From: an uncultured virus (IMG/VR IMGVR_UViG_3300020048_000035)
Taxonomy: Duplodnaviria; Heunggongvirae; Uroviricota; Caudoviricetes
Reading direction: 5' to 3' (one strand)
Virus record (IMG/VR): IMGVR_UViG_3300020048_000035
Length of the DNA stretch: 64,000 bases
Position 1 is the first letter of the stretch. Every line of letters starts with the position of its first letter. The notes beneath the pieces are model-generated. The model was not told where the DNA came from. It saw only the letters and a list, made by a program, of their open reading frames with translations, and did no database searches. Below are positions 18,240-37,470 of the stretch, piece by piece. Position numbers and translations under genes: made by a program.

Positions 18240-18428
18240 GGATTCAAATCCAAATTATAGAATTTCGTTTTCAACATGAAATATTAGAATTTCACATGCA
18301 TATCCAAATTGCACATTTTCGTGCACAGATTTCGCGTGTGCATCCAAATTGTGCATTTTCGCGTGTGCATCCAAATTGCACATTTTCGTGCACAGATTTC
18401 GCGTGCGGATTTCGCGTGCGGATTTCGT
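18240..18428. repeat. 13/14-bp ATTTCGC-type tandem repeat array 1
   Basis: units ATCCAAATTGCAC / ATTTTCGTGCACAG / ATTTCGCGTGTGC / ATTTCGCGTGCGG. Confidence 0.9.
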
Positions 18429-18430
18429 CC

Positions 18431-18964
18431 CTATGTTTCACTTGCGGGTGTATTCATACTCACTTGCGATGCATGGTACTGTGTATACCATTGTTTAGCT
18501 GTTAATCCCTGTTTCCTAGCATCCCTAGCGCCGTCTACCTTATCCTTATAGTGAGCCCGTGTATCGAACCATTGGTCAATAGGGATGCCCCTATCTACCT
18601 TGTTTACTCTGGTAAGTTTCCCTACAATAATCTTCTGATACCGTTGCTGAAACTCTGGAAAGTTAGTAACACGGCTTAGATCATATACAGGTCGGTTGGT
18701 AATCTTAGTTCCTAGTACACGCATAACAGCTAGTGGATATAGTTCATCCGGTAGATCCCTATAGTTATCTGTAAAGAAGTGATCCACAGTATCTGACATT
18801 ACATATACACCCTGATCCATAAGCTCTGGGGTAATTTCAGCAATGGGGAAATGTTCCAACGCATAGTCCAGCGCAGTGTTTAGTGTAGCCAAGGCTGTGG
18901 GGATATCCTGTTGTTCCATTAGCGTCTTGTGTACTAGGTTTTCTACATGTAGTCGGTGGTTCAC
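18431..18964 (-). CDS. hypothetical protein
   Basis: 177-aa ORF, GTG start after AGGGA. Confidence 0.7.
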   Translation of the reverse strand: MNHRLHVENLVHKTLMEQQDIPTALATLNTALDYALEHFPIAEITPELMDQGVYVMSDTVDHFFTDNYRDLPDELYPLAVMRVLGTKITNRPVYDLSRVTNFPEFQQRYQKIIVGKLTRVNKVDRGIPIDQWFDTRAHYKDKVDGARDARKQGLTAKQWYTQYHASQVSMNTPASET

Positions 18965-19362
18965 GGTGTTTCCCTATTGTGTAATCTGCATGCATGCAGA
19001 TATTAGTCTGTTGATAATAGTCCCTATTGTAATGGGCGCGGTTTTTTCTGTCAAGCGAAATATAATACTGTTGTTTTTGTGGGATAATTAATTTAAAGTA
19101 ATGGCGGCATTTTAACCTAGTTTGGAAAAAATGTCAACAGTATCCCTATTGTTCTTGTGGATATAGGTTAAAGTTACGGCCTATTTCTACCACAGTATTG
19201 GTGCCGTGTCAACCATATCCCTACTGACAATAGGGTTATGGGTTAAAGTTGAGGGCGGACTCTATCATGGATATTCTATTGTGTCAAGGGTTTTTATTGT
19301 GTCTTTTATCTATCACAACGGGGATATGTTGTCAATAGGGATTTACCCCTAGTTTAGGATTA

Positions 19363-19445
19363 ACGCCCAGGGTCCCCGTCCATCCCGAGTGTTGGCTCTT
19401 CGAATCCATATGAATATTATAGCACGGTATTTTTGTCCGTGTCAA
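19363..19445 (-). ncRNA. promoter plus conserved ~50-nt element, copy 1 (putative sRNA)
   Basis: TTGACA-N18-TATAAT-N6-ATGGATTCGAAGAGCCAACACTCGGGATGGACGG...GGGCGT. Confidence 0.45.
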
Positions 19446-19464
19446 ACGGTGAAAATATAATATT

Positions 19465-19547
19465 GACGCCCACCCTCGCCGTCCATCCCGAGAGTGTCTC
19501 TTCGAATCCATGTATGTATTATAGAGGCATATGGAATTCTGTGTCAA
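19465..19547 (-). ncRNA. promoter plus conserved ~50-nt element, copy 2
   Basis: same architecture as copy 1. Confidence 0.45.
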
Positions 19548-19620
19548 GTGGAAATAGGGGGTTGACAGAAAAAAAATCACGGGTTATAGTGACGGTTCAT
19601 CAACAAACCGGAGTTTTATC

Positions 19621-19995
19621 GTGGCCTACATGAACCAAGCGAAGAAAGCACAGATTGCCCCCACTGTGAAAGAAATCCTCAAGCGGTATGGAGTCAAGGG
19701 CAGTCTCAGAGTCCGCAACCATCTGACCCTAGTGCTAACAGTACGCAGCGGTACCATTGACTTCAATAGGGACTATGGCGTTCCACAGGGCAAGGCGGAG
19801 CGGCACATTCAGGTCAATCCCTACCACTATCAGAGTCACTTCACAGGTACTGCTTTACAGTTCTTATCAGAGGTAATCCCTGCCATGAATTTGGGCAACC
19901 ATGATAACAGCAATGCTCAGATTGACTACTTTGATGTAGGGTTTTATACTGATATCAACATCGGCGACTGGGATAAACCTTATCAGTTGACTTGA
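19621..19995 (+). CDS. phage hypothetical early protein
   Basis: own promoter (19562-19590) and GGAG RBS. Confidence 0.8.
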   Translation: MAYMNQAKKAQIAPTVKEILKRYGVKGSLRVRNHLTLVLTVRSGTIDFNRDYGVPQGKAERHIQVNPYHYQSHFTGTALQFLSEVIPAMNLGNHDNSNAQIDYFDVGFYTDINIGDWDKPYQLT

Positions 19996-20030
19996 CAGTA
20001 AAATTAAAGTGGGGCTATAATAGCCCTACT
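19992..20030 (+). promoter_or_regulatory. early promoter with inverted repeat centred on -10 (representative copy)
   Basis: TTGACA-N18-TATAAT; AGTGGGGCTAT-A-ATAGCCCTACT. Confidence 0.8.
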
Positions 20031-20053
20031 GAAACAAACCACAGGAGTATCTT

Positions 20054-20401
20054 ATGTCAGCATTAAAGAATCGTTACATCAAGCAGGCCGAGAACGAAAC
20101 TGCGGTGATTGAGAAGTTTAAGATGGCACTGGACAAAGACCCTGCCTATGCCCTATCATGGGGGTGCGGAGTGTTTGCCGCTGCGGCTAAGTTGCGAGTA
20201 CTCAGGCAACTGATTAATGTACTGGGTGATGGTGAGGCCACGCAGGAAGATGTTCATAGCCTAATGATGGCCAATGTATTACATAAGAGCCAGTATCCTG
20301 CTCAGAGTTCTAGCCCTACCAGTAACCTGATTGAGCAGTATGAACTAGCGGCCTGTGCTGAGATTATTGCTGATCTGCCTCGCTATAAGTTTGACAATTA
20401 A
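20054..20401 (+). CDS. hypothetical early protein
   Basis: promoter plus AGGAG RBS. Confidence 0.8.
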   Translation: MSALKNRYIKQAENETAVIEKFKMALDKDPAYALSWGCGVFAAAAKLRVLRQLINVLGDGEATQEDVHSLMMANVLHKSQYPAQSSSPTSNLIEQYELAACAEIIADLPRYKFDN

Positions 20402-20449
20402 TTAAAAGTAGGGGTATAATACTCCTACTGTAATCTACCGGAGTTAATC

Positions 20450-20875
20450 ATGACTGAATTCCAATGTACTTCTTGTGGCGGTAATCGGGTGTTGTGCGAT
20501 GCGTGGGTGGGTCTCAATGACCCAGAGGATGTACGAATCTTTGATCAGGCTTTCTGTGAGGATTGCGATGGGGAGTGTAGTGTAGAAGAGGTAGAAGTGT
20601 TAGATGATGAGCCTCAGTCACAGCCAGTAATTGACGAACAAAACTGTACGCACTTTGAGATGTTCACTGATGCTGGAAATCGCATGGTGGCACAGCTTGT
20701 TAAGAATGCCGTAGCCATGGAACTTGACTGGGCGACAGTTCATGCTCAGTTACATGAACTTGCCAAGAATGATCGGTATGGCGAGGCCACAGACAGTTCA
20801 GTGCGTGAGATAGTATTCTGGGCGATTGGTGCTGAACGCCGTGGTGAGCAGTACTGGGTTTTACAACTGAAGTAA
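20450..20875 (+). CDS. hypothetical early protein with Zn-ribbon
   Basis: CTSC...CEDC; own promoter. Confidence 0.8.
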   Translation: MTEFQCTSCGGNRVLCDAWVGLNDPEDVRIFDQAFCEDCDGECSVEEVEVLDDEPQSQPVIDEQNCTHFEMFTDAGNRMVAQLVKNAVAMELDWATVHAQLHELAKNDRYGEATDSSVREIVFWAIGAERRGEQYWVLQLK

Positions 20876-20920
20876 GGTGGGAGTATAATACTCCTACCAA
20901 CTAACCAACAGGGGAACGTA

Positions 20921-21217
20921 ATGGGTGCTACTAATTTTGCTTGTATTGCTCGTGGTAAGGACGCTAAAGAGGCCTTTTCAAGTGCTCGTGATGATGCCTT
21001 GTATGAATTTGGCCATGGCGGTTACACTGGCTCTATTGCCGAGAAAAACGGTTTCAAACTGGTTACACTCACAGAGTCCGAGTTAACTGATCTCTCGTTG
21101 TTCAATGCTAAGATTGACGAGTTAATTGACACTGAGTTTAGCGACAAATGGGGTGAGGCAGGCTGTGTTAAGGTCAAAGAAGATATGTATTACTTCTTTG
21201 GCATGGCAAGCTGTTAA
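20921..21217 (+). CDS. hypothetical early protein
   Basis: own promoter and RBS. Confidence 0.8.
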   Translation: MGATNFACIARGKDAKEAFSSARDDALYEFGHGGYTGSIAEKNGFKLVTLTESELTDLSLFNAKIDELIDTEFSDKWGEAGCVKVKEDMYYFFGMASC

Positions 21218-21255
21218 CTGTGGTACAATAACCTTTCTACTTAACTGGAGTTGTT

Positions 21256-21492
21256 ATGAAAGTCTCTACTTTGATTGCTGTGTTACAGGGAATGGATCCC
21301 AATGATGAAGTACACTTTAGCTACAACGCTAAGGACTACTGGAACACTCAGGTAGCACCCAAGGTAGATACAGTGTATCAATCCAATGTCCGGTACGATG
21401 ACTATCACGGCATGGACAAGATTCAGGATGATGAGGAAGATGATATCATCTTAGATTCTACATTTAGACGAGTTGTAGTTATTACCGCTTGA
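21256..21492 (+). CDS. hypothetical early protein
   Basis: GGAG RBS. Confidence 0.8.
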   Translation: MKVSTLIAVLQGMDPNDEVHFSYNAKDYWNTQVAPKVDTVYQSNVRYDDYHGMDKIQDDEEDDIILDSTFRRVVVITA

Positions 21493-21551
21493 CAAGCAAA
21501 TTCAGGTGGGGGTATAATACTTTCACCTTAACAAACCACACGGAGAAGTAA

Positions 21552-21908
21552 ATGAATACAATGACAAACGAGCAGCGCGACTACTTGATCAAACGCTTAA
21601 ACGAAATCACACGCGATAAAGTTCGCGCCAAAGAACTGGCATTGTACGGTGCTGGTGGTGCTACCCAACCTACATGGGGGCAGGTGTTTGCCGCTATCAA
21701 GGCAGGGGAGATTGTACTTAAAGAGGGTACTGAGTCACTTACCCGTGCTTATCTGATGCCTACTGATGTTGAATGGCCTGCTCTGACTGCTAAAGCTGCC
21801 GAGTTGGAAGAGTACAAAGACCTGTTGCGTATTGAGCGTCAGCGTATTATTGACAGCCTTTGGTTGGGCGGGGCTGCTGACGCACTTACCGATTACGCCA
21901 ACCTGTAG
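21552..21908 (+). CDS. hypothetical early protein
   Basis: own promoter and RBS. Confidence 0.8.
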   Translation: MNTMTNEQRDYLIKRLNEITRDKVRAKELALYGAGGATQPTWGQVFAAIKAGEIVLKEGTESLTRAYLMPTDVEWPALTAKAAELEEYKDLLRIERQRIIDSLWLGGAADALTDYANL

Positions 21909-21969
21909 TTGACAGAGTAGTTCAGGTGGGAGTATAATACTCCTACCTTAATCAAACCACGGAGTTATC

Positions 21970-22335
21970 ATGAAAACACCTCAAGTAGCAGCATTGTCAG
22001 GCATGACCCCACTAGGTATCAACCAGTTCGCAGAGATCCCTACCATTCAACCTGATGGCAAGACGGACATCAATACCATTGTCCGTGCTATCATCTTTGG
22101 CGACTTCACCAATCATGAGATTGATTCCCTTATTCAGGCAGTTAAAATTGCCCGTACTAATTTGGGCGAGAAGAACAAGCAGGCTATTGACATAGGTACT
22201 AATGTGAACTTTACTTCACGCACAGGCCGTAACTTTACTGGTGTAGTCACCAAGGTTGCCATTAAGAATATCACTGTGCGTACCGCTGATGGTGGGTATG
22301 TAGTACCTGCTAATATGGTTCGAGTAATTGACTAG
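21970..22335 (+). CDS. hypothetical early protein, SH3/KOW-like C-terminus
   Basis: own promoter and RBS; GTNVNF...GVVTKV..KNITV. Confidence 0.75.
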   Translation: MKTPQVAALSGMTPLGINQFAEIPTIQPDGKTDINTIVRAIIFGDFTNHEIDSLIQAVKIARTNLGEKNKQAIDIGTNVNFTSRTGRNFTGVVTKVAIKNITVRTADGGYVVPANMVRVID

Positions 22336-22420
22336 CACTTGACAGGCAAAACACAATGGGGCTACAATAGCCCTGTTGTAGTGAATAACCTTTAACCTTA
22401 ACCAAAGAGAGGAACACAAA

Positions 22421-23125
22421 ATTCCAAATTGGTGTCAGAATTCCCTAACCATTACCCACGATGATCCTGCGATGATTGCCCGTGCCAAGGCAGCGTTTGA
22501 GGCTGAAAAATTATTCAATGAGTTCATTCCTGTGCCACAAGACTTGGTTGATACTGTCAGTGGCTACATGGGTGATGGTGAGGATCAGCTTAAGCTAGAG
22601 GCACAGAGTGCCAAGAACCGTCATGCCTACGGCTATGCCAACTGGTATGACTTCTGTTGCAGTGAGTGGGGTACTAAGTGGGATATAAATGGTGGCGAGA
22701 TCACCAGTGAAACAGAAAATATGCTGGTCATGTACTTTGATACAGCATATAGTCCTGCTATTGCTGCGTATGACAAGTTGACTGCGCTAGGCTTTGGCAT
22801 TGAGGCTATGTACTACGAGTCAGGCATGCAGTTCTGTGGCACATACACCTCAGAGGATGGTGATGATTGTATTGATATCACAGGGGATAGCTCATGGGTA
22901 GAACGCAATATCCCCCCAGAGATTGATGCTCAGTTCGCTATCAGCGAGTGGATGAGCGAGTATGAACAGCAGAATGCCGAGGACGAGAATGAAGTCCTTA
23001 TTGATCAGGTGTTGGAACGGATCAAGGAAGATGTCGCCAAGGGTGATGTTACTGCCGTTGCTGAGTTGTTGGGCTTTATTCCTGTGGAGAAACTCAAGGT
23101 TTATCTTGATCCCGAGAACAATTGA
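22421..23125 (+). CDS. DUF1281/YubB-like ferredoxin-fold protein (probable ATT start)
   Basis: (M)PNWCQN...NWYDF...WGTKWD...FDTAYSP...YYESGM.FCG. Confidence 0.7.
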   Translation: MPNWCQNSLTITHDDPAMIARAKAAFEAEKLFNEFIPVPQDLVDTVSGYMGDGEDQLKLEAQSAKNRHAYGYANWYDFCCSEWGTKWDINGGEITSETENMLVMYFDTAYSPAIAAYDKLTALGFGIEAMYYESGMQFCGTYTSEDGDDCIDITGDSSWVERNIPPEIDAQFAISEWMSEYEQQNAEDENEVLIDQVLERIKEDVAKGDVTAVAELLGFIPVEKLKVYLDPENN

Positions 23126-23190
23126 CAGTTAACTAGTTCCTAGGTTATACTGTGGTATAATCTAGTCTCTAATTCAACAAGGATTTTAAA

Positions 23191-23376
23191 ATGTACACTA
23201 ACAACATTTATAGTTGCCGTTCTGAGTCTGGCGATTTTGAGATAGTGGCAGGTGAAGATTTAGAAGATGCTATGGAGAGTTATAACAGGCATTTCCCTGA
23301 AAAAGAATTAGAATCAGTTTTTTTGATGGTTTGGAGTAAAGATGATGAAGATAATCAGGATGACGATGACAACTAA
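23191..23376 (+). CDS. hypothetical acidic early protein
   Basis: own promoter and RBS. Confidence 0.7.
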   Translation: MYTNNIYSCRSESGDFEIVAGEDLEDAMESYNRHFPEKELESVFLMVWSKDDEDNQDDDDN

Positions 23377-23423
23377 ATAGTTTTCGTGTTATACTGTAGT
23401 CCAGTCACCAACAGGAGTTAGTC

Positions 23424-23774
23424 ATGCGAGTCTATGTTTACTACAACCTACGCAAGAAAGTCTTCTCAGTCAAGGCACTGGAGGGTGAGAAGAAAGGTTT
23501 AGTTATCGCCCATGTTAAACGCATCTCCCTAGAGAATGTGGAGTTTCATGTATCACAAGCAGGCAGAGCCAGAGTCCTGCGTGAACAGCAGAAGAATGTT
23601 CACGCCGGAGCTAGGGGTACATGGGTTGTTGGTGCTAACGAGCCACATAGCCTGACTCAGGTTACTTACAATCCTTACCTGTACAGCACCTTTGTTCAGG
23701 CAGACACACAAGAACCAGTGTATAATGCCACATATGCTTATCTACACGATAAGCGAATCTTTGCTCAACTATAA
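23424..23774 (+). CDS. phage hypothetical protein
   Basis: VY.NL.K..FSV...AGR.RVLRE..KNVHA...YNPY. Confidence 0.8.
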   Translation: MRVYVYYNLRKKVFSVKALEGEKKGLVIAHVKRISLENVEFHVSQAGRARVLREQQKNVHAGARGTWVVGANEPHSLTQVTYNPYLYSTFVQADTQEPVYNATYAYLHDKRIFAQL

Positions 23775-23782
23775 GGAATACC

Positions 23783-23977
23783 ATGCCACAGATTTACAAC
23801 CATGCGTTTGACTTTGCCTTTTCAATTGAGACCACTGACGAGACTGGTGAGAACATCACTGGCGCAGAGTTCCGAGAGCATATCAAGGCAGCACTAGCCA
23901 GACTCACAGATGACGACATTGTGAGTAACTGTGGTATGCCGTTTGATACCTATGAAGTTGACCCAGTTGACGGTTAA
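23783..23977 (+). CDS. hypothetical early protein
   Basis: AAGGA RBS. Confidence 0.7.
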   Translation: MPQIYNHAFDFAFSIETTDETGENITGAEFREHIKAALARLTDDDIVSNCGMPFDTYEVDPVDG

Positions 23978-24025
23978 ATAGTTTCTGTAGTATACTGTAG
24001 TCTCACACACAAACCGGAGTACACC

Positions 24026-24358
24026 ATGAGTAATGTAAGCAAGATGATTTCGGACGCAAAGACAATGACCGGAACAATGACTACCCTTGTTGACCGGACT
24101 ACTATCCAACGAGTAACTGTAACTCGTCTTGACGATGGTCAGTGGGAAATGGTTTTTGAATATGGTCTGACTGCTGGTGATAAGGCATTCATGCGATCAT
24201 TCAATGAACAGTTCAACCAGTACGATATCAGTGATAAACAAATCACAGACTTCTTGCTTGGCTATGATGAGGAATACTTTGATGGTTACAGCGAGTTGGC
24301 AGACGCATACAATCTTTGGACTGATGCGGTACAGTTCACAAACGCAATCAAGGGGTAA
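24026..24358 (+). CDS. hypothetical early protein (DAYxLW family)
   Basis: own promoter; DAYNLWTDA. Confidence 0.75.
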   Translation: MSNVSKMISDAKTMTGTMTTLVDRTTIQRVTVTRLDDGQWEMVFEYGLTAGDKAFMRSFNEQFNQYDISDKQITDFLLGYDEEYFDGYSELADAYNLWTDAVQFTNAIKG

Positions 24359-24361
24359 TAA

Positions 24362-24526
24362 ATGCCTAACTGGTACTATACCCGTACTGTGGTACAATCA
24401 GTAATGATCGTGGCTGATAGCGAGGATGAGGCGTATGCCCAGTTAGTTGATGACTCTGGGTCATACGAGGAAGAAGTAACTACCGTTGAGGGAGAATGGA
24501 CGGTAGATGGTATTGGATACGACTAG
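24362..24526 (+). CDS. small acidic protein (54 aa, not in track)
   Basis: MPNWYYTRTVVQSVMIVADSEDEA. Confidence 0.6.
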   Translation: MPNWYYTRTVVQSVMIVADSEDEAYAQLVDDSGSYEEEVTTVEGEWTVDGIGYD

Positions 24527-24587
24527 TGACTTGACAACCAAATAAACCGTGGGTTATACTGTAGTCTCACTAATCAAGGAGTACACA

Positions 24588-24767
24588 ATGACCATTGAAA
24601 AACTAAAGTACAACATGGCAGAACGAGTGGTTGCCAAGATGGAACTGGACGAGTTTAGCACTCAAGAGATCACCCACTTTGTGGAGCATTATGATGACAT
24701 GACTCTTGCAGATTTTCTTCGTGAAGTTGCGTTGTATGCTCCAGATTTGCTAGTCGGAAACGCCTAG
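24588..24767 (+). CDS. hypothetical early protein
   Basis: own promoter and AAGGAG RBS. Confidence 0.7.
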   Translation: MTIEKLKYNMAERVVAKMELDEFSTQEITHFVEHYDDMTLADFLREVALYAPDLLVGNA

Positions 24768-25461
24768 CAGCGTGTCTAGCTATCAATGCCGCGCTGATTT
24801 TGGCGCGGGTTTCAGGTGAGTAGGTTCGGCCTTTATTTGCCTCACTTACTTTGGCACGGTGTTCCGGTGAGGTGTTTCGTTTTCTATTTGCCTCGGCTAT
24901 CTTGGCACGGTATTCCGGTGAAGCGTTTCTTTTTGCCGCACTCAGTTTGGCGCGGGTTTCAGGTGATACAATACGGTTTCTAGATGCCTCACTAATTTTA
25001 GCACGGGCTTCAGGTGATCTAATGTTATCTGAGAAGCCTCGTTTTTTAGCTGCCTCGCTCATTTTGGCACGGGTTTCAGGTGAGATGTTTCTAGCTGCCG
25101 CACTCATTTTGGCACGGGTTTCCGATGAGTGGGTTCGGCCTTTATTTGCCTCACTAATTTTGGCGCGGGTTTCTTCTGTGTGAATGATACCACCACCATG
25201 ACCATTCTCTGGCTTGAGGTTTGCCCATTCAGGAGATTCAACTACATCGTATAATTCACTGTAGTATAATCCCCATTTACTCACTTCTTCTTTTGTTTGA
25301 CATTCCATCAATATATCTGTATCATGGTCATCACCATGTTTATTGAGATGGCGAAGCCAATATTTTCCAGATCCGTTGTATCTATATGGGTTGTTCTTTG
25401 TTTGACCGAGGTACTTGAGGCCAGTTATTTTATGGGTTTTGATGTACAAATAAATAGTCAT
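24670..25461 (-). CDS. GIY-YIG (Seg-like) homing endonuclease with NUMOD3 repeats
   Basis: YLYIKTH..TGLKYLGQT...Y.GSG; many SPETRAKIS repeats. Confidence 0.85.
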   Translation of the reverse strand: MTIYLYIKTHKITGLKYLGQTKNNPYRYNGSGKYWLRHLNKHGDDHDTDILMECQTKEEVSKWGLYYSELYDVVESPEWANLKPENGHGGGIIHTEETRAKISEANKGRTHSSETRAKMSAAARNISPETRAKMSEAAKKRGFSDNIRSPEARAKISEASRNRIVSPETRAKLSAAKRNASPEYRAKIAEANRKRNTSPEHRAKVSEANKGRTYSPETRAKISAALIARHAARRFRLANLEHTTQLHEENLQESCHHNAPQSG

Positions 25462-26652: not shown

Positions 26653-26794
26653 GCGGTATCATGGTTGGTATGTAGTCATGCTGTACAATAGTGCCGGACA
26701 GTTACTTGACAAGATGCGCTGCGATACCTATCGTGGCGGACTAGAGTACCTACGAGCGTTTAACAAGATTGCCAAGAACCTAGGACAACCATGA
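26609..26794 (+). CDS. hypothetical early protein
   Basis: coupled ORF. Confidence 0.6.
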   Translation: MKVKEQKNGAWTTFERYHGWYVVMLYNSAGQLLDKMRCDTYRGGLEYLRAFNKIAKNLGQP

Positions 26795-27003
26795 AAGCAT
26801 ATGTTCAAACTACCCTGATCCAAGAGATTGAAGTGCCGGAGGGCAGTACTCAGAATGATGTACTGAACTTCTTGGCAGTGTATCAATCATTCCGCGATGA
26901 GTTCGTTGACATCAGTGATGAGAACCAACAGTACCGAATTACAGATGTTAATGTTACCCTCGAAGATGTTATAGAACTGGGTGACGAGTGCTTTGACGCT
27001 TGA
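26791..27003 (+). CDS. hypothetical early protein
   Basis: coupled ORF. Confidence 0.7.
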   Translation: MKAYVQTTLIQEIEVPEGSTQNDVLNFLAVYQSFRDEFVDISDENQQYRITDVNVTLEDVIELGDECFDA

Positions 27004-27008
27004 CTTTA

Positions 27009-27116
27009 GAATCTCATGTTAGAAACGAGATTTTGGAATCTCGAAGTTGAAATGAAATTCCGGAATCTCGCGTGTGCATTTCGCGTGTGCATTTCGCACC
27101 CGCATTTCGCGCACAC
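27009..27116. repeat. 13-bp ATTTCGC tandem repeat array 2
   Basis: four clear units 27065-27116, preceded by degenerate GAATCTC units. Confidence 0.9.
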
Positions 27117-27189
27117 AACCCGTGTTGACACATCATACGCATACGCAGTATAATACACACACATACACATACACACATAGGAGTACATC

Positions 27190-27378
27190 ATGTACGAACC
27201 CAACGCACACCAACGATTACTACGAGTACAACAGTTGCTTACCCTAGCACACGAGATACTGTTTAGAGATGGACACTATGACTTGTCAACTGATCTGGCA
27301 AATGTTATGGATGATGTTAGTCTAGTGGCTGACGAGGTTGAGGCTGAAGTGTATGCTGAAGACGGGACTGTACAGTAA
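27190..27378 (+). CDS. hypothetical protein, paralog of the next ORF
   Basis: promoter 27125-27154; LL..AH.IL. Confidence 0.75.
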   Translation: MYEPNAHQRLLRVQQLLTLAHEILFRDGHYDLSTDLANVMDDVSLVADEVEAEVYAEDGTVQ

Positions 27379-27566
27379 TGTTACAGCATAGGATAGACCA
27401 GTTGACAGAAGTTAATGACTTGCTTTCCAAGGCTCATGGTATACTGTACTTGAATAGAATGACAGGACTGGCTGACGAAGTACTGAGTACTATAACCTCA
27501 GTGGCTCACGAGCTGTATGAAGCTGACTTAGTACAACGCTTCAACACAATGTATCCCAAGGAGTAA
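27378..27566 (+). CDS. hypothetical protein, paralog of the previous ORF
   Basis: LLSKAHGIL...VAHELYEA. Confidence 0.75.
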   Translation: MLQHRIDQLTEVNDLLSKAHGILYLNRMTGLADEVLSTITSVAHELYEADLVQRFNTMYPKE

Positions 27567-27568
27567 CA

Positions 27569-27748
27569 ATGTTTATAGACCTAGATATCATTTACCTAGT
27601 GTTGGTAGCACTAGTATCGGGGGCGGTAACATACATTGCCGGATACATTCATGGCGGTTATCATGAACGCCGAGACTGGAACAGCCTGATTAAAGAGGGT
27701 AGGCTACCACATCCTGTGGTAGAACCCGAGCGATTATGGAGATCGTGA
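27569..27748 (+). CDS. small membrane protein (59 aa, not in track)
   Basis: AAGGAG RBS; hydrophobic N-terminus. Confidence 0.65.
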   Translation: MFIDLDIIYLVLVALVSGAVTYIAGYIHGGYHERRDWNSLIKEGRLPHPVVEPERLWRS

Positions 27749-27948
27749 TGTACGGATTTTTCAAGAAGAACAAGCCCCCTTGTTTTGTGGTTGATCCAAA
27801 GATTCTTGGCGGTATCACCCACGCTAAGTTAAAGAAAGCTCATGCCGAGGGAGCGTTGATTGAACGCTACCATCCCTTGCTGGGCTGGGTTGTTGATTCG
27901 GTAGCACCTAGATGGTTTAATTTCTGCGAGTACCGCATTAAACAGTAA
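27748..27948 (+). CDS. hypothetical protein
   Basis: HAKL.KA.AEGA.IE...P.W...EYRIK. Confidence 0.65.
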   Translation: MYGFFKKNKPPCFVVDPKILGGITHAKLKKAHAEGALIERYHPLLGWVVDSVAPRWFNFCEYRIKQ

Positions 27949-28030
27949 ATTGTTCCACGTGGAACATCCCTTTATAGCCTAGCACATTCTCGGTGTCTGG
28001 GCTATAGGTGTTTACCCCTAGGGCGTAAAC

Positions 28031-28113
28031 GACGCCCACCCTCACCGTCCATCCCGAGTTTGGCTCATCGAATCCATGTATGTATTATAGCATGGTATTT
28101 TTATTTGTGTCAA
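28031..28113 (-). ncRNA. promoter plus conserved ~50-nt element, copy 3
   Basis: TTGACA-N18-TATAAT-N6-ATGGATTCGATGAGCCAAACTCGGGATGGACGGTGAGGGTGGGCGTC. Confidence 0.45.
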
Positions 28114-28194
28114 ACACAAATAATTTAAATAATTTGGCACAAGTAGAAAAAATGGGGTACACTATCATTTCTGTCACCCAACCAAGGAAATACC

Positions 28195-30340: not shown

Positions 30341-30526
30341 ATGAAGAAATATTCAATAACCATTCAGGCAATCATTGAAAAGACTTTTTTAATTGAGGCC
30401 GAAGACGCAACCAAAGCGTATTTGGAAGCGCATGACTTATTCAATCCTTACTCGGGCGAGGCAGAAGTTTTACACGAAACAAATACATTGACGATTGTAG
30501 AATGTTCTTTAACACCTGTTATTTAA
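30341..30526 (+). CDS. small protein (VEAE family, DpnD/PcfM-like)
   Basis: KKYSITI...F.IEAED...A. Confidence 0.7.
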   Translation: MKKYSITIQAIIEKTFLIEAEDATKAYLEAHDLFNPYSGEAEVLHETNTLTIVECSLTPVI

Positions 30527-30574
30527 ATTCTATGCTATACTGAGAGTTCTAAGCAAACAACCAAGGGGAAGTAA

Positions 30575-30913: not shown

Positions 30914-30966
30914 CAACCAACAGAACTGCGGGTTATACTGGCAGTTCTTTATCCACAGGAGTTATC

Positions 30967-31212
30967 ATGAGTTTCTACACAGTTGCTATCATAACTAAGT
31001 TCTACAAGTACATTCAGGTGGAGGCTGAGGATCAGGATCAAGCTGAGGAAAGGGTCTGGAATTGGTGCGATAACAATGATGCTATGTACATGGCTGATGT
31101 TGAGTCTGAACTGTACGTTGATCTTGAGAGTGATGAACCCAACCCAGACTTGCCTGTGACTGATCATGAAGAGAATCAGGATAATGGTGAAGAACAGGAG
31201 GAGTCAAAATGA
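30967..31212 (+). CDS. small acidic protein (VEAE family)
   Basis: YIQVEAEDQDQAEE; own promoter. Confidence 0.7.
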   Translation: MSFYTVAIITKFYKYIQVEAEDQDQAEERVWNWCDNNDAMYMADVESELYVDLESDEPNPDLPVTDHEENQDNGEEQEESK

Positions 31213-31416
31213 AAGTAACCATTGATGTTGAGGCTATTGCCAAACGGGCTGCTGAGTATCAGGAAAACAATGATGATATTAGCTATCCGTTTTGGATGGC
31301 GTTCCGTGATATGTATCCCCAAGCAGGGGATGCGGCATGGGCTGTACTGATAACCAACACCATACCAAAAAATTAAAATCATGCTATACTCTGTGTTCTC
31401 TATTAAAGGAATCAAC

Positions 31417-31611
31417 ATGACCTTATATTTGTGTAGTGGCTACTGGAAGGGCAATCCAACCGATACTTTTGAATGGAGGATTATCTCTGATGGCACTTGG
31501 AATGGCAAGGCAGACTGGTATGATGAAAAGATTTTCTTCTACACCAATGGCAAGCCTGTGATTGGTGATCAGGGTGATTTCGTTATCACCGAAGCCGAGG
31601 TATGGGATTAA
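31417..31611 (+). CDS. hypothetical early protein
   Basis: AAGGA RBS. Confidence 0.7.
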   Translation: MTLYLCSGYWKGNPTDTFEWRIISDGTWNGKADWYDEKIFFYTNGKPVIGDQGDFVITEAEVWD

Positions 31612-31805
31612 CTATGCTAATTGATTTTACTGAGTCAGATGATGATATGATCCAGCGACAGGCAACAGCAGCAGTAGCCTGTGGTGACTTCACTAACTGG
31701 GATCATGCCTATGAAACCCTGTGGAATAGTTTTGAGTGTGAATTGACACAAGATTAAATTATCGGTTATACTATCAGTTCTGTAGCAAACAACCTAGGAG
31801 TTATC

Positions 31806-32006
31806 ATGACAATGGAAGCCCTCTACCCCACCAAGAAAGCCCTGAAAGAATCGGTGGGCAAACGCCTGAAGTATAAAGAAACCAGTATGTTTGGTGCTCA
31901 GTACAAGAGCAATGGTACTATTACTGTTGCGGATGGTTTCACAGGCAAGCGCAAGTGGTTTGCCTCAGTCACAATGAAGGATGACCTGATTCACAAGGTA
32001 TCATAA
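31806..32006 (+). CDS. phage hypothetical protein
   Basis: YPTKKALKE.VG..L.Y.ETSMFG...WFA.V. Confidence 0.8.
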   Translation: MTMEALYPTKKALKESVGKRLKYKETSMFGAQYKSNGTITVADGFTGKRKWFASVTMKDDLIHKVS

Positions 32007-32261
32007 GGACAGGGGGCGAAAGCCCCTTGTTCGCCATTTAAATTTCATGCTATACTGTCAGTTCTGAGCAAAACCAACCGGAGTTATCATGGAAGATGAT
32101 TTTGACGCCCACTTTTATCCTGATGTAACCGACTATAGTGATGACGGTTATCCCTACGATTACCCCCAAGAGTATTGGGAGTGGAGACATGATATTCAGG
32201 ACGAGTACGAGGACTGCGGTGATGTTTCCGGCTGCGAACCCTATGATAATGAGGAGTTTTA

Positions 32262-32456
32262 ATGAACAAGGATGACGCGGCCTTTCTTCGGGCATACACC
32301 AACAGCTTTGGGGGCAACCCCAATGATCTGGTCAACCTAGAGAAATGGTTGACACAGGGCTGGGGAGAAGATTATAATATAGCCATGCGTGATGCCTACA
32401 ACCTGTGGCAAGACGCCAGAGATTACTTTAAAGGAAAGAACCATGAACAAAGATAA
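32262..32456 (+). CDS. hypothetical early protein (DAYxLW family)
   Basis: DAYNLWQDA. Confidence 0.75.
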   Translation: MNKDDAAFLRAYTNSFGGNPNDLVNLEKWLTQGWGEDYNIAMRDAYNLWQDARDYFKGKNHEQR

Positions 32457-32649
32457 ACTCAATACCTTTTATGACCTGTATGTACAGCACTTTGGTGAGG
32501 ATGCTATTGGCCTCATTGATCTAGAAAACGCTATTGTCACAGGAGATTACTCCAAGATCAATTCTATGATGGTCAGTGCGTTTGAACTGTGGCAAGACGC
32601 AGCCAAGGATGCCGCTGAAATAATTAAAAATATTAGTAAAGCTGTTTGA
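32443..32649 (+). CDS. hypothetical early protein (DAYxLW family)
   Basis: MNKD...SAFELWQDA; tandem paralog of the previous ORF. Confidence 0.75.
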   Translation: MNKDKLNTFYDLYVQHFGEDAIGLIDLENAIVTGDYSKINSMMVSAFELWQDAAKDAAEIIKNISKAV

Positions 32650-32706
32650 CATTAAATTAATTTCGAGTGTATAATCTCTTTACGGTAAACCCAACGGAGA
32701 AATACC

Positions 32707-33030
32707 ATGATCACCAAGACCTTAATCGTAGAGCTTCTTCAAAATAACGACAAAGCAGTAGGTCGTGCCCTAGTAGCCCTGTATGCTCGTCAGACCGAAA
32801 GTGAGAAGTGTACCGAGGCTACACTCAACAACAACGGCGAGGGTTTTACTCCGGCAGACGCATTTATTGGCGGTAGTATGGCGAAGTTTTTTTCGGATCG
32901 TGGCTACCTGACCACAAAGCAGTTGGAGTACTGGCGTAAGCCGAACGCAAAAGGCACTCCGAGAATTTGTAAGTATGCAGGGCAGTTATTACTGGTTGCC
33001 GAGGCAAAGGCAAAAGCGGTGGCAGTATAA
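32707..33030 (+). CDS. phage hypothetical protein
   Basis: AV.RAL..LY.RQT...NG.GF..ADA. Confidence 0.8.
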   Translation: MITKTLIVELLQNNDKAVGRALVALYARQTESEKCTEATLNNNGEGFTPADAFIGGSMAKFFSDRGYLTTKQLEYWRKPNAKGTPRICKYAGQLLLVAEAKAKAVAV

Positions 33031-33116
33031 CGGTGGGGGGCAACCCCCATTTGCTTTTAATTTAAATACCGTGTTATACTATCAGTTCTGTAGCAAACAA
33101 CCACCGGAGCAACACC

Positions 33117-33389
33117 ATGAAATTACTGATCCAAACCCAAGCGTCTGATAACGGCAATCATATCAGTAAAGACTACTCATATGCGCTTGGCAAGCATGGC
33201 CGCAGCGAGGAAGCCCTGACAGAACTGGTAATGGCTCTCCGCACTAAGATTGATAGCAAAGAGCATATCGTTGGTTGGTACATGGTGGAGGATAACTACC
33301 TCACCGACTTTGAAAAGAGCCAGTTGAAGTACGATGGCATTGTTAAGTACCCAACCCGTGTTTTAACCCTAGGAGAAGTCAATGTCTGA
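33117..33389 (+). CDS. hypothetical early protein
   Basis: cassette upstream. Confidence 0.75.
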   Translation: MKLLIQTQASDNGNHISKDYSYALGKHGRSEEALTELVMALRTKIDSKEHIVGWYMVEDNYLTDFEKSQLKYDGIVKYPTRVLTLGEVNV

Positions 33390-33618
33390 TGTAAACTTGT
33401 TGGACGGGGACTATGTCCTCACAGATGGTGCGGCATGGTTCAAGGTAAAGAACTTCTCAATCCGCATCCAATCAACCGATGAGGGTGTTGTTGTTGATCT
33501 GTACCCTTACCTAGGGGTGATGGAAGAACCTGTTGCTAGTTGTTGGGCACTTGACAGTGAGGTAGAACCGGAGGATAATAGCAGTGAGTTAAGTCCGTTT
33601 AACACTATTAATTCTTGA
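33382..33618 (+). CDS. hypothetical early protein
   Basis: AGGAG RBS. Confidence 0.7.
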   Translation: MSDVNLLDGDYVLTDGAAWFKVKNFSIRIQSTDEGVVVDLYPYLGVMEEPVASCWALDSEVEPEDNSSELSPFNTINS

Positions 33619-34278
33619 ACGATTTCTATTTGCCTCACTAATTTTAGCGCGGCGCTCTGGAGTCATACTAGCTTTAATTGCTGCGCTTAGTTTGGCACGG
33701 TGTTCCGGTGAAAAAGTGCGGCCTTTTTTTGCCGCACTAATTTTGGCACGGGTTTCCGGTGAGTGGATGAGGCCTTTCCTTTTCTCACTCACTTTCCTTG
33801 CCTCACTCATTTTGGCGAAAGTCTCGGGTGAGATGCCTCGTTTTTTAGCAGACTCACTCATTTTAGAGCGGGTTTTAGGTGAGCGGACGCTGCCTTTCCT
33901 TGCCTCACTCATTTTGGCACGAGTTTCAGGTGAGAAGGTTCGGCCTTTATGTGCCTTACTCAGTTTGGCACGAGTTTCAGGTGATCGGGCAGCGCCACCA
34001 GCACTACCACCATCACCGCTTTCGGGTTTTAGGTTTGCCCATTCCGGTGATTCAACTACATTGTATAATTCACTGTAGTGTAATCCCCATTGTTTTACTT
34101 CTTCATTTGATTGACATTCTATTAGTATTTCAGTATAATGTTCTTTGCCATGTTTATTGAGATGGCGTAGCCAACGAACGCCTGAACCTTTGTAAAGGAA
34201 TGGGTCTTTAGTTGTTTTGCCTAGATACTTGAGTCCTGTTATTTTATGGGTCTTAATGTAAAGAGTGTAAATAGTCAT
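33589..34278 (-). CDS. GIY-YIG (Seg-like) homing endonuclease with NUMOD3 repeats
   Basis: paralog of 24670-25461. Confidence 0.85.
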   Translation of the reverse strand: MTIYTLYIKTHKITGLKYLGKTTKDPFLYKGSGVRWLRHLNKHGKEHYTEILIECQSNEEVKQWGLHYSELYNVVESPEWANLKPESGDGGSAGGAARSPETRAKLSKAHKGRTFSPETRAKMSEARKGSVRSPKTRSKMSESAKKRGISPETFAKMSEARKVSEKRKGLIHSPETRAKISAAKKGRTFSPEHRAKLSAAIKASMTPERRAKISEANRNRSRINSVKRT

Positions 34279-34416
34279 GCTGATGTTCTCCAGAACTTTA
34301 GAGTAGTTGGGATTCCCGTCCGCGAACTACATTTTTATTTATATAACATTCTTAGTTCCCGATTAATTCTGTGCTATACTATCAGTTCTGTAGCAAAAAC
34401 AACTAGGAGTTATATC

Positions 34417-34614
34417 ATGAGAAAGAAGTTTGTGTGCTATTGGGGGCAGGGTTATTCGCAACTAGGCGAGGCCGTTGTCATGCATGTGGAGTTCTTTGAC
34501 GGTAATGTTGGCTACAGCGATGAGGATATTGAGTTGCTAAACAACCTTGAGGTAGGAAAAGCAATCAACTTTAGCTGCGTCACCAGCGAGCATTTTGTCA
34601 TGAGGGTAGCATAA
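34417..34614 (+). CDS. hypothetical early protein
   Basis: cassette and AGGAG upstream. Confidence 0.7.
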   Translation: MRKKFVCYWGQGYSQLGEAVVMHVEFFDGNVGYSDEDIELLNNLEVGKAINFSCVTSEHFVMRVA

Positions 34615-34835
34615 TGTTAAAGAACTATGTAGTGCTGTATCGCATTGAAAGCATCATGTCACCGCTTGATGCTCCCTTTGGCTTCCAATGCCATGCCGAG
34701 GACTCAGACCACGCCGAGGAGCAGTGCCTGAACGCTTATGGCGATTGTGATGTAGTCTGGGTTCACCAGAGCGCCGAGGGTACAGGCATGACAGAAGCCC
34801 TAGATGAATACTGGAATCTGGGCATTGACAACTAA
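34614..34835 (+). CDS. phage hypothetical protein
   Basis: F.C.AED.DHAEEQC.NAY. Confidence 0.75.
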   Translation: MLKNYVVLYRIESIMSPLDAPFGFQCHAEDSDHAEEQCLNAYGDCDVVWVHQSAEGTGMTEALDEYWNLGIDN

Positions 34836-34878
34836 TTAGATTAGGGGCTATAATGCCCCTTATTCATTGGAGAACGAC

Positions 34879-35223
34879 ATGGTTGACCAAGAACTGTTAG
34901 AACTCGCGGCAAAGACTGCGGGATTGAACGTAAAGGCTCAGTCAGTAAACGCAGATGACCGTTGGATCGGTTTAATCGTTGGCAAAAAGCACACAAGAGA
35001 AAAGAAATTTTGGAACCCGCTAACCGATGACGGCGATGCTCTTCGGCTGGCGGTGAAATTTAAATTGCGGATTGAAATTAACGATTTGCTAGGTGATGCG
35101 CTTGTATCGGGTAAATTTTGTTACACTATTGAAAATCATAACGATGACTCCTACGCAGCAACACGCCGAGCAATCGTCAGAGCAGCGGCAGAGATTGGTA
35201 AGGCTATGGGAGAGCAAGTATGA
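34879..35223 (+). CDS. phage ABA-sandwich-like domain protein
   Basis: WNPLTDDGDALRLAV...ATRRAIVRAAAEIG. Confidence 0.7.
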   Translation: MVDQELLELAAKTAGLNVKAQSVNADDRWIGLIVGKKHTREKKFWNPLTDDGDALRLAVKFKLRIEINDLLGDALVSGKFCYTIENHNDDSYAATRRAIVRAAAEIGKAMGEQV

Positions 35224-35347
35224 GTTATATCGTATGGGTTGGGGGCGTGGCGGTGTTTGAAGGTGATGAAGCCAAGCTTGCACGCAAGATTTTTAACGAG
35301 TGGGTAGCCAAAGGCTATGATGATGTAGCCTTAGAAAAGGTGCCAGC

Positions 35348-35605
35348 ATGAGCGGGATTTGTCCAAGGACGCCTGCTCATTTGGCGAGATTAGAAAGGTA
35401 TGGTATTATATCTACACCTGTTAGTCCCCGTCACCTTATGTCAATACGAGCGTCTGCTCAAGGAGTCAGTATGAACGATATCATACGCAATACGCCCTAC
35501 GCATTCTCATGGCTTAGTACCAAGCAAGTGTGCCAACGCTGGTCGGCATACTACGCCGCAATCAACTGGGAGAACCACAATGCCCCGCCATACAACAATC
35601 TATAG
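35348..35605 (+). CDS. hypothetical protein
   Basis: ORF with AAGG RBS. Confidence 0.55.
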   Translation: MSGICPRTPAHLARLERYGIISTPVSPRHLMSIRASAQGVSMNDIIRNTPYAFSWLSTKQVCQRWSAYYAAINWENHNAPPYNNL

Positions 35606-35849
35606 TGTAGTAACTGAATATCCGCCGATGGATAACCTCCCGACATTGATAGACGGAAAATACATTATCTTTCAAAGTAGGAATTTTTTAACGGCTCGCA
35701 AGGAATGTATTGAGTGGGCTGCATACGATGATATATTCGTGGAAGTACACAAGGGACATGACGGTTCTAACTCTGGTTACATTAAGTTTTCTTGCGATGG
35801 TGTAAGAGAAGCAGATAGACGCTATCCCAAAACATCAGCGAATGTTTGA
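35580..35849 (+). CDS. hypothetical protein
   Basis: GGAG RBS. Confidence 0.65.
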   Translation: MPRHTTIYSVVTEYPPMDNLPTLIDGKYIIFQSRNFLTARKECIEWAAYDDIFVEVHKGHDGSNSGYIKFSCDGVREADRRYPKTSANV

Positions 35850-36113
35850 CCCTGTTTAAATTCTCTGTTACAATAAGTTTTTATCAACCAAGGAGCAGGC
35901 CATGAGTTTTATGCGAGAAGCAGTCCGCGAGTGGGTTTGGATTGTAGGACAGGATCGTTCAGACCAGCAATGGATTCTGTCTGATTATGATACATGGGAA
36001 CGCAATCCACATTACACAGGTGCTGATCAAGGTCATCCTGAGGATTATTGTGAGGATGAAGAGTAACCAAAACTGTGGTACAATAAGTTTTTTATCAACC
36101 CAAGGAGTATATC

Positions 36114-36323
36114 ATGTCGAAGTTCTATTCACCACGAGATCACGAGGCAATGGTTCAAGCCTATATGTCTAATGGTTGGACACGTGCAGCAGCCGTGCGG
36201 CAAGTTGACGGAGAGGAAGCACAAACCATCAAAGAAAACAATGAATGGCTAGACTCGCTTGACAACGAGGTTGACGATGAGTTGCCAAGCGAAGCCTACT
36301 ACATCAACGGTGATCTATCATGA
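36114..36323 (+). CDS. hypothetical early protein
   Basis: AAGGAG RBS. Confidence 0.75.
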   Translation: MSKFYSPRDHEAMVQAYMSNGWTRAAAVRQVDGEEAQTIKENNEWLDSLDNEVDDELPSEAYYINGDLS

Positions 36324-36509
36324 TCACTCATGTCAATGTCACCTACACTGCCTATGAGAAGGGTACTAACATCGTCATATCAGAGGGTGTTTATCCTGTT
36401 GCTGGTAGCAACGCATGGGTGGCAGAGAACACCGTCAAGGCTGTATTCTCGGGCCTAGACGTTGTTATCCGAGGGTCAAACTTCGTTAGAGACTAGAGGC
36501 CAACCGCTG

Positions 36510-36708
36510 GGATCTCATGCTGGGATCTCAGGTTGAAATCTTGCAGTTGACTTTTCGTTTTGAAATCTCGCACCTGAGATGAAATTCTAGAATTTCGCGC
36601 ACACATTTCGCGTGTGCATTTCGCGCACACATTTCGCGCACACATTTCGCGCACACATTTCGCGCACACATTTCGCGTGTGCATTTCGCGTGTGCATTTC
36701 GCGCACCT
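36510..36708. repeat. 13-bp ATTTCGC tandem repeat array 3
   Basis: nine units 36592-36708, ATTTCGC+GCACAC or GTGTGC; degenerate units upstream. Confidence 0.95.
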
Positions 36709-36734
36709 AACTCGCGTGAACATCTGCACACTGT

Positions 36735-36764
36735 ATTATAGCACACATATAAATGCCCTGTCAA
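36735..36764 (-). promoter_or_regulatory. promoter firing into repeat array 3
   Basis: TTGACA-N18-TATAAT on minus. Confidence 0.65.
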
Positions 36765-36777
36765 ACAGGGCACGGTA

Positions 36778-36957
36778 TTAAACTTCAGTCAGGTTCAGCA
36801 CTTCCTGAACCATCTCAGGCAGACTACAATCATTGACTGCGTCCTCGTCCCATTGGTCAAGGGCGATTACATCCGCCTGTTCAATGTCATCTGCCTCGAA
36901 CTCAATGTGTTGATAGTAAGTGATGGTGGTTGCGATTGTGGCTTTGAATCGTGGCAT
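36778..36957 (-). CDS. small acidic protein (VEAE family)
   Basis: MPRFKATI...IEFEADDIEQA; AAGGAG RBS. Confidence 0.7.
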   Translation of the reverse strand: MPRFKATIATTITYYQHIEFEADDIEQADVIALDQWDEDAVNDCSLPEMVQEVLNLTEV

Positions 36958-37019
36958 GATGAACTCCTTGTGGATGAACCCCAATTGTAACACAGGGTTG
37001 CCGGAGCAACCCCGTTAGC

Positions 37020-37292
37020 TTAGGCTGACCAGTATGTTTCCGAACTGGGTGAGCAGAAGCTAGGTGTATCGTAACGCTCTTGGAACTCCTCGCCTGACAA
37101 CAGGTTCTTGCGTGTCACATAGGTCAGGTGGATGGTGAAGCGGTAGCCCTTGGCCGCAGGGTAGAGTGAGGCGTACTCAGCCTCAAGACTGTCGCGGCCT
37201 GTTACCTTGTGGTCTAGCTTGGCGACCAGTCGTTCGCCTAGCTTGGTGCGTGAGTCACGCTTGAAGAGTTCTACTGTGTAATCCGGTTCCAT
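37020..37292 (-). CDS. phage hypothetical protein
   Basis: ends DTPSFCSPSSETYWS; inverted cassette upstream. Confidence 0.8.
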   Translation of the reverse strand: MEPDYTVELFKRDSRTKLGERLVAKLDHKVTGRDSLEAEYASLYPAAKGYRFTIHLTYVTRKNLLSGEEFQERYDTPSFCSPSSETYWSA

Positions 37293-37365
37293 TTATAACT
37301 CCTAGGGTTGGGTACTGAACTGATAGTATAGCATGGGTTTTTAATTTTAGAATCCAAATTTTGAA

Positions 37366-37470
37366 ATTTCGCGTTGGAATTTCGCGGTTGGGTTTCACAG
37401 TTGAAGTTTCGCACCCGCATTTCGCGTGCACATTTCGCACCCGCATTTCGCACCCGCATTTCGCGTGCCA
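37366..37470. repeat. 13-bp ATTTCGC tandem repeat array 4
   Basis: ATTTCGCACCCGC / ATTTCGCGTGCAC units. Confidence 0.9.

Follow-up and report, generated by a model that had tools for sequence, protein, structure and literature searches.

What is the role of four arrays of short, evenly spaced repeats in the genome of an uncultured tailed phage? The question is raised by a stretch of 64,000 nucleotides (IMG/VR record IMGVR_UViG_3300020048_000035, Caudoviricetes), which was analysed over its full length and is called the window below. Four arrays, all in the same direction, are found at about 18.3, 27.1, 36.6 and 37.4 kb. Each is built from a 13-bp unit made of a core, ATTTCGC, and a variable 6-mer. 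The original prediction, made from the letters alone, had described these arrays and proposed that they were protein-loading or segregation sites, Z-DNA supercoil sinks or a multi-hairpin sponge RNA. We tentatively read them as iteron- or operator-like docking sites of a candidate DNA-binding protein that would gate the adjacent early promoters, a reading that we prefer and hold at somewhat less than an even chance. The arrays and their parts are listed here (ORF, open reading frame).

18240 to 18447, plus strand: array 1, between the stop of ORF 18431-18964 (minus strand) and the start of ORF 17899-18204 (minus strand)
18240 to 18321, plus strand: degenerate, A+T-rich part of array 1
18322 to 18395, plus strand: part of array 1 with a 27-bp period (repeat 18322-18388), TTTTCGC flanked by TGCACA/TGTGCA
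18396 to 18447, plus strand: four 13-bp units of array 1
27004 to 27116, plus strand: array 2, with degenerate A+T-rich units and weak hairpins (27004-27064), then four 13-bp units (27065-27116)
36536 to 36721, plus strand: array 3, with a degenerate part (36536-36591), nine 13-bp units (36592-36708) and one decayed unit (36709-36721)
37327 to 37470, plus strand: array 4, with an A+T-rich part (37327-37365), three units (37366-37404) and five units (37406-37470)

All four arrays were reported by Tandem Repeats Finder and all four are housed in non-coding junctions. The word ATTTCGC was counted 22 times in the window (6.72 ± 2.67 expected), a number reached by none of 100 shuffled sequences, and 21 of the 22 copies are on the plus strand. 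All of them fall between 17.5 and 40.1 kb (21 on the plus strand and one on the minus strand); either flank has none. This span corresponds to an island of about 22 kb (approximately 17.6-40.1 kb) with 42-48% G+C, crowded with tiny genes, whose right G+C boundary is at about 40.1 kb. The composition of array 3 was as first described: its nine units carry GCACAC (five units), the exact reverse complement GTGTGC (three units) or, in the last unit, GCACCT. The tract of 11 alternating purines and pyrimidines that had been pointed out there is present in eight of the nine units. The three-unit and five-unit runs of array 4 are separated by a 14-nt step. Each array decays leftward, as had also been noticed; the left flanks (39-82 bp) have 23-36% G+C, against 54-58% in the perfect units, and these A+T-rich flanks are degenerate repeats themselves.

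To measure conservation, units were taken by phase alone from the window and its relatives, which gave 55 units (28 distinct) from 11 arrays or array segments. Positions 1 to 7 carry 1.2-2.0 bits of information each and positions 8 to 13 carry 0.1-0.8 bits, with the consensus ATTTCGC-R-Y-N-Y-R-N. ATTTCAC and GTTTCAC are present as array variants. With a period of 13 bp and without unique spacers, the arrays differ from CRISPR arrays, which have repeats of 21-37 bp and unique spacers.

Relatives were sought in sequence collections with a pattern of three ATTTCGC cores at 13-bp spacing. It matched at least 122 metagenome loci and 75 genome loci (197 loci examined); the same pattern gave no match in IMG/VR. 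Only five of the 197 loci share island genes by tblastn (L008, L047, L058, L066 and L067). The other 192 share none and are mostly homogeneous 13-bp repeats. L003, with 17 units, was rejected as a relative, its ORFs being sparse and none of its genes shared. No match was obtained by megablast or blastn against the phage collection, and no IMG/VR relatives were found for the flank proteins 40084-41139 and 17899-18204.

L066 and L067 come from a single metagenome contig of 13,964 bp (relative R), which is collinear with the window from 19.4 to 37.7 kb at 70-100% amino-acid identity. R carries arrays at the same places as arrays 2, 3 and 4; core and phase are kept, and unit numbers and spacers differ. 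At array 2, R has five units and the window four, the difference being a clean 13-nt gap between otherwise near-identical flanks. At array 3, R has about five units with other spacers, against nine in the window, and in the 13-bp-phased run of array 4 beside the promoter it has four against five. Because units differ by 13-nt indels, a coding function of the arrays is excluded. L008 and the near-identical pair L047/L058 (38-92% amino-acid identity to island proteins) have one array each, made of 7 x ATTTCGCACCCGG in L008 and of 5 x ATTTCGCGCCCGG followed in the same phase by 3 x GGTTCGCGTGGTA in L047/L058. These arrays lie between a hairpin with a 15-bp stem and a T-run (terminator) and a TTGACA-17-TATAAT promoter, upstream of a homologue of ORF 27569-27748, so that the array 2 arrangement of terminator, array and promoter is kept. 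Most probably no transcript covers this gap between terminator and promoter, an argument for a role exerted on the DNA itself. No such array was seen in the examined parts of the IMG/VR relatives L200-L204.

The original prediction proposed a search for the 13-mer in related phages, and arrays were indeed found in R, L008 and L047/L058. They are not assembly artefacts, a concern that it had also raised, because they recur in separately assembled metagenome contigs; moreover, a contig from another study, about 91% identical, spans the array 2 region (26848-27128) with two listed 1-nt gaps, both outside the array. The change from GCACAC to GTGTGC amounts to four simultaneous transitions, and one template-switch event in a quasi-palindrome, followed by unit amplification, would be a simpler account. 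The inversion is best read as a mutational by-product and not as a functional hairpin or Z-DNA element. On sequence comparison, both forms are older than the split of the window from R.

The arrays adjoin promoter-like sites and hairpins, given below with their strands. Matches of 12/12 refer to TTGACA-18-TATAAT, and folding energies are accompanied by z-scores against shuffled sequences.

17846 to 17882, minus strand: intrinsic-terminator-like hairpin with a U-run, after ORF 17899-18204 (minus strand), -18.6 kcal/mol, z -4.44
27125 to 27154, plus strand: rightward promoter-like site, 12/12, directly right of array 2, predicted to drive ORFs 27190-27948
36506 to 36535, plus strand: hairpin closing the rightward gene string, two quasi-palindrome copies TGGGATCTCA, -18.1 kcal/mol, z -2.87
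36735 to 36773, minus strand: leftward promoter-like site (36764-36735), 12/12, TG-extended by an upstream TG
37496 to 37504, minus strand: extended -10 element (box 37496-37501) with the minus-strand sequence TGCTATAAT, 26 bp to the right of array 4
37526 to 37617, minus strand: leftward promoter-like site (37617-37588, 12/12) and, after it, a conserved leader of about 55 nt, present four times in the window

Array 2 is placed downstream of the stop of ORF 26791-27003 and of the weak hairpins, and its right end is 8 bp before the -35 of the promoter at 27125. The rightward gene string, whose last ORF ends at 36496, meets a leftward unit at array 3. The leftward promoter and the -10 box that had been predicted to fire into arrays 3 and 4 are both present, the former with its full match and TG, the latter reading TGCTATAAT. 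The -35 of the promoter at 36764-36735 is within the loop of a terminator-like hairpin (36773-36753) that ends ORF 36778-36993 (minus strand). This predicted promoter points into array 3, behind which there is no ORF, and R has two leftward promoters at this position. Array 4 lies behind the extended -10 (37504-37496) and the further 12/12 promoter (37617-37588), and forms the leader of the leftward ORFs 37020-37292 and 36778-36993. The extended -10 is conserved in R as TGCTATGAT, directly abutting the array (3 bp, against 26 bp in the window). For leftward transcription from the 12/12 or extended -10 promoters, the predicted start points are about 20 nt before arrays 3 and 4. The leftward unit with array 1 in it is closed by the terminator-like hairpin at 17846-17882. 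In the scans, neither a terminator-like site after array 3 nor a leftward promoter for array 2 was found.

We infer that one sequence-specific protein, encoded by the phage or by its host, would bind head-to-tail along the direct repeats at 13-bp spacing. In the junctions between transcription units of this hyperplastic early-gene island, the protein filament would act as a gate on the promoters beside it. Leftward transcripts would be blocked at initiation or in early elongation at arrays 3 and 4, and the filament on array 2 would border on the -35 region of the rightward promoter. The number of units would change through replication slippage, and the 6-nt spacer would be weakly constrained. 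Protein docking is favoured because the core is conserved, the phase strict, the spacers free and the unit number variable; because the arrays of R keep core and phase despite changed units and spacers; and because the arrays adjoin promoters and ATTTCGC is confined to the island. A precedent is given by BldC, which is described as oligomerizing head-to-tail on direct repeats (PMC5859096). Among the functions first put forward, protein loading fits the core and the phase best; segregation, Z-DNA and sponge RNA fared less well, as detailed below.

Several observations weigh against protein docking. ORFs were compared with Pfam, PHROGs and NCBIfam, and no DNA-binding family was recognized at usable thresholds in the 60 ORFs of the island (approximately 17.9-40.1 kb), nor in 27 larger ORFs of the window (87 ORFs in total). 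Only three or four of 27 island promoters have an array. The distance from array 4 to the -10, which differs between the window and R, implies that there is no fixed operator geometry, and array orientation is independent of promoter orientation. Finally, sites 13 bp apart do not keep in phase with the DNA helix, as those of cooperative operators usually do. The model of P0001, a conserved 90-aa protein encoded between arrays 3 and 4, also gave no fold match at E <= 0.001, DNA-binding folds included, even though it is confident (predicted local distance difference test score, pLDDT, 85.3). The array-binding partner may be encoded by the host.

The Atlas neighbours of P0001 are viral hypothetical proteins and weak GIY-YIG-containing clusters; its link to the arrays was rejected, as in L202, L203 and L205 its homologues are preceded by plain promoters and no arrays. 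The product of ORF 37677-38420, next to array 4, belongs to the GP88 family (PF17338; 6790 relatives at E <= 1e-10); three of its cysteines are invariant (C38, C46 and C50), and its fold matches are weak and TIM-barrel-like. It is highly conserved and probably an enzyme, and was rejected as an initiator. A link between the arrays and two ORFs of NUMOD3 motifs was rejected too, R having arrays without these ORFs. Tandem arrays of other sequence are also near the GP88-family genes of Limnohabitans phage DC31, of the contig behind L002 and of L202. At 385-620, near the left end of this last IMG/VR relative and upstream of its P0001 and GP88 homologues, at least nine DnaA-box-like words CTGTGGATAAC are spaced by 11 bp.

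The arrays would make an unusually clean test case for protein docking, with an invariant 7-bp core, four arrays and natural variants in unit number. The consensus sigma-70 promoters of the island should work in laboratory hosts, and the approximately 60 small early ORFs form a finite list of candidates for the binding protein. Its identity would give at least one early ORFan a function and would reveal if the role of the arrays is in gating early transcription or in starting replication. Arrays of short repeats in phase are a recurrent feature next to the early promoters of large lytic phages.

Among the other explanations, origin-type iterons have the best chance, though a low one. Like iteron origins, the arrays consist of evenly spaced direct repeats with a conserved core. 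Each array also has an A+T-rich left flank (23-36% G+C), itself made of degenerate repeats, and an adjoining strong promoter. Array 1 is near the minimum of cumulative GC skew (18.45-18.75 kb), a skew switch that is confounded by gene orientation, and near a transcriptional divergence (19.5 kb); in T4, according to a review, oriE has iterons, and origins are at switches of skew and points of divergence (PMC3016281). However, no family of initiators, helicases, helicase loaders or primases was recognized among the 87 ORFs, no DnaA box was found in or beside the arrays, and four arrays in 19 kb are many for origins. Strand composition is inconsistent as well (G 16 and C 13 in array 1, G 24 and C 39 in array 3, G 45 and C 34 in L047, all on the plus strand), so that the arrays share no R-loop bias. 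The arrays might instead be functionless minisatellites, prone to slippage, in recombination-prone intergenic cassettes. Unit number does vary among close relatives, runs of identical units (six in L008 and four in array 3) imply recent slippage, and unrelated DNA often has homogeneous 13-bp repeats with ATTTCGC in them, as at 192 of the 197 loci. Neutral drift would explain less well why, in heterogeneous arrays, the 7-bp core and the phase persist although each of the six spacer positions varies, why arrays are retained at orthologous places down to 38-92% protein identity, and why the same core is found in four separate arrays and nowhere else in 64 kb; we regard this explanation as quite unlikely. 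Boundary or packaging signals, with the island of about 22 kb as a collapsed long terminal repeat holding the first-expressed genes, are very unlikely. Arrays close to the island edges would then be repeats for recognition, pausing or cutting, comparable to the short-repeat arrays beside the terminal repeat of T7. The two ends of the compositional island have arrays 1 and 3/4 close by, the flanks on both sides resemble a single 36% G+C genome from a very large phage, and the 13,964-bp contig of R covers about the same span. Array 2 is nevertheless in the middle of the island and array 4 stops 2.6 kb short of the right G+C boundary (about 40.1 kb); contig depth, at about 3-3.7 in a 600-bp flank and 3-5.4 in the island, is too low and patchy to show double coverage. 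The chance is smaller still that the four arrays are dispersed loading sites for a ParB-, TubR- or BldC-like adaptor which, during lytic growth, would coat, compact or position the first-expressed segment of about 20 kb of a giant phage in a centromere- or insulator-like manner and possibly mark a terminal-repeat segment. The segregation sites of the original prediction remained unsupported, as no ParA, ParB, ParM, ParR, TubZ or TubR family was recognized in the same 87 ORFs; one sub-threshold ParB match (E 0.063, 12 bits against a cutoff of 274) was taken as noise.

Two further explanations rest on the transcripts or on the shape of the DNA. The arrays could act as RNA, leftward transcripts of arrays 3, 4 and 1 presenting repeated GCGAAAU either as 5' leaders or as a decoy for an RNA-binding protein. 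This would suit the TG-extended 12/12 promoter that points into array 3 with no ORF behind it, the two such promoters of R, the leader position of array 4, and array 1 between two leftward ORFs and upstream of a terminator. It would not suit array 2, which has no leftward promoter and is behind a terminator in L008/L047, nor array 3, which has no terminator downstream. Minus-strand folds are no better than those of shuffled sequences (z -1.24 for array 3 and +0.55 for array 4), complementary neighbouring spacers are absent from array 4 and from its counterpart and that of array 3 in R (R4 and R3), and the Rfam search gave no matching family. The plus strand of array 3 folds at z -3.39, its centroid keeping hairpins left of the units and stems within the array; no rightward promoter that would make a discrete array 3 RNA was found. 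CsrB-like sponge RNAs have their own promoter and terminator and a motif in the loops of stable hairpins, a combination not seen here. The multi-hairpin sponge is accordingly disfavoured, its spacer complementarity not being conserved, and an RNA role in general has only a small chance of being right. That the spacers, with their alternating purines and pyrimidines, would form supercoil sinks (Z-DNA or cruciforms) between strong promoters is extremely unlikely. Besides the 11-nt runs of array 3, two of the four units of array 2 have an alternating run of this length and a third has one of 10 nt, and the arrays are beside promoters predicted to be very strong. Such runs are not conserved, though, being found in one of five units of the second run of array 4, one of four in R4, none of seven in L008 and none of nine in L047, and inverted neighbouring spacers are rare outside array 3. 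Short tracts broken by ATTT would also need two B-Z junctions in every 13 bp.

To return to docking by a protein, the closest analogue by likeness is the cluster of 12-nt iterons at oriE of T4, which is conserved in relatives and whose role is given as undefined (PMC3016281). The two have in common short, evenly spaced direct repeats in non-coding DNA of the early region of a large lytic phage, syntenic conservation, proximity to switches in transcription direction, and early transcripts, predicted for the arrays, that cross them (PMC3016281). The period is 12 nt and the cluster single in T4, against 13 nt and four dispersed arrays here, and no repE-like genes were recognized in the window. 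BldC is a small winged-helix protein that is reported to form head-to-tail oligomers on variable numbers of direct repeats, an example of a single small protein coating arrays of unequal length (PMC5859096). As in the BldC/Xis case, the arrays have a variable number of tandem sites in the same direction, with an A+T-rich part followed by a C-G element (PMC5859096). The BldC consensus repeat, AATTNNNN(C), is shorter than the 13-bp unit (PMC5859096), and no BldC-, MerR- or Xis-like ORF was detected in the window; the comparison is therefore one of working mode only.

The centromeres of low-copy plasmids and prophages offer another parallel. R1 parC is the centromere array of a low-copy plasmid. 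Like parC and parS, the arrays are clusters of short repeated sites that may overlap a promoter, protein binding being predicted for the arrays. The box A heptamers in the record of P1 parS read ATTTCAC, ATTTCAA, ATTTCAC (inverted) and ATTTCAC, and match ATTTCGC at 6/7 positions. P1 parS differs in that its four box A copies, of mixed orientation, surround an IHF site and are accompanied by box B hexamers, and in having no phased tandem units. The likeness of box A, at one mismatch in a short word, may be due to chance and is taken as a lead and not as membership. In the literature on 13-bp repeats or arrays with phage early promoters, and on ATTTCGC repeats in phages, no description of these arrays was found.

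The window looks like part of a very large phage. Its left flank (1-17.5 kb) has about 60 tiny leftward ORFs and 33-39% G+C, and its right flank (40-64 kb) has 35-41% G+C and encodes two ClpP, ClpX, UvdE, a CHASE2 cyclase, CsgG/CsgF and a glycosyltransferase. The nearest phage matches of these right-flank genes are in phages of 200-500 kb. A promoter scan gave 78 sites, against 37.4 ± 6.1 in shuffled sequences. The 27 island sites have at most one mismatch from TTGACA-17/18-TATAAT, and 14 of them match at 12/12; spacers are mostly 18 nt in the island and 17 nt in the flanks. In at least seven of the 27, a stem of 6-8 bp closes over the -10, each ahead of a tiny ORF. Most of the tiny ORFs in the island have a near-consensus sigma-70 promoter to themselves. 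Gene order is shuffled among the relatives of the island, and several metagenome and IMG/VR contigs have the same type of architecture. By these sequence features the island matches the promoter-early stem-loop (PeSL) hyperplastic region of T4-type phages, where sigma-70-like promoters of high strength, together with stem-loops, are described before small ORFans that are shuffled between relatives (PMC2839356). The likeness extends to the stems over the -10, the tiny ORFs and the shuffled order; PeSLs are single cassettes, and tandem 13-bp arrays are outside the description given for them (PMC2839356). PeSL-type cassette architecture would thus be extended to uncultured freshwater phages.

The leader element next to array 4 belongs to a module present in four copies on the minus strand (19389-19552, 27945-28118 and 37526-37622). 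Each copy has a 12/12 leftward promoter followed, from about the transcription start, by the conserved element of about 55 nt, which is kept in the close relative. The element is not coding, because reading frames differ between copies, and Rfam gives no match for it. A small RNA of about 125 nt is suggested by the copy at 28113, as a terminator-like hairpin (27966-27951) forms its end.

Other repeats were noted in and around the island. A block at 17650-17779 is made of a 62-bp unit (2.1 copies) derived from 17-bp units with the word CCACTGTTGTAT; it lies at the left edge of the island, within 350 bp of non-coding DNA just past the leftward unit's terminator. In L205, the homologue of ORF 17899-18204 is preceded by a 27-bp array. 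The two NUMOD3 ORFs (24670-25461 and 33589-34278, minus strand) are paralogous and consist of tandem motifs whose coding DNA is a series of 51-bp repeats. Their match is confined to the DNA-binding part of a homing-endonuclease PHROG, and the collinear relative R has neither of them. Each is paired with a rightward promoter (25297 and 34111), and both promoters share one upstream sequence.

A strong stem-loop flanked by A and T runs is found at 39285-39356, between the convergent ORFs 38503-39285 (plus strand) and 39282-39509 (minus strand). It is a sub-threshold match to Phe_leader and probably a bidirectional terminator. On the right flank, the two ClpP-family genes (44838-46903, minus strand) are split by a GIY-YIG/NUMOD3 homing-endonuclease-like gene on the plus strand. 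ClpX (61752-62945), FecR, a curlin-repeat protein, the CHASE2 cyclase, CsgG and CsgF are encoded in this flank too, an unusual cargo for a phage.

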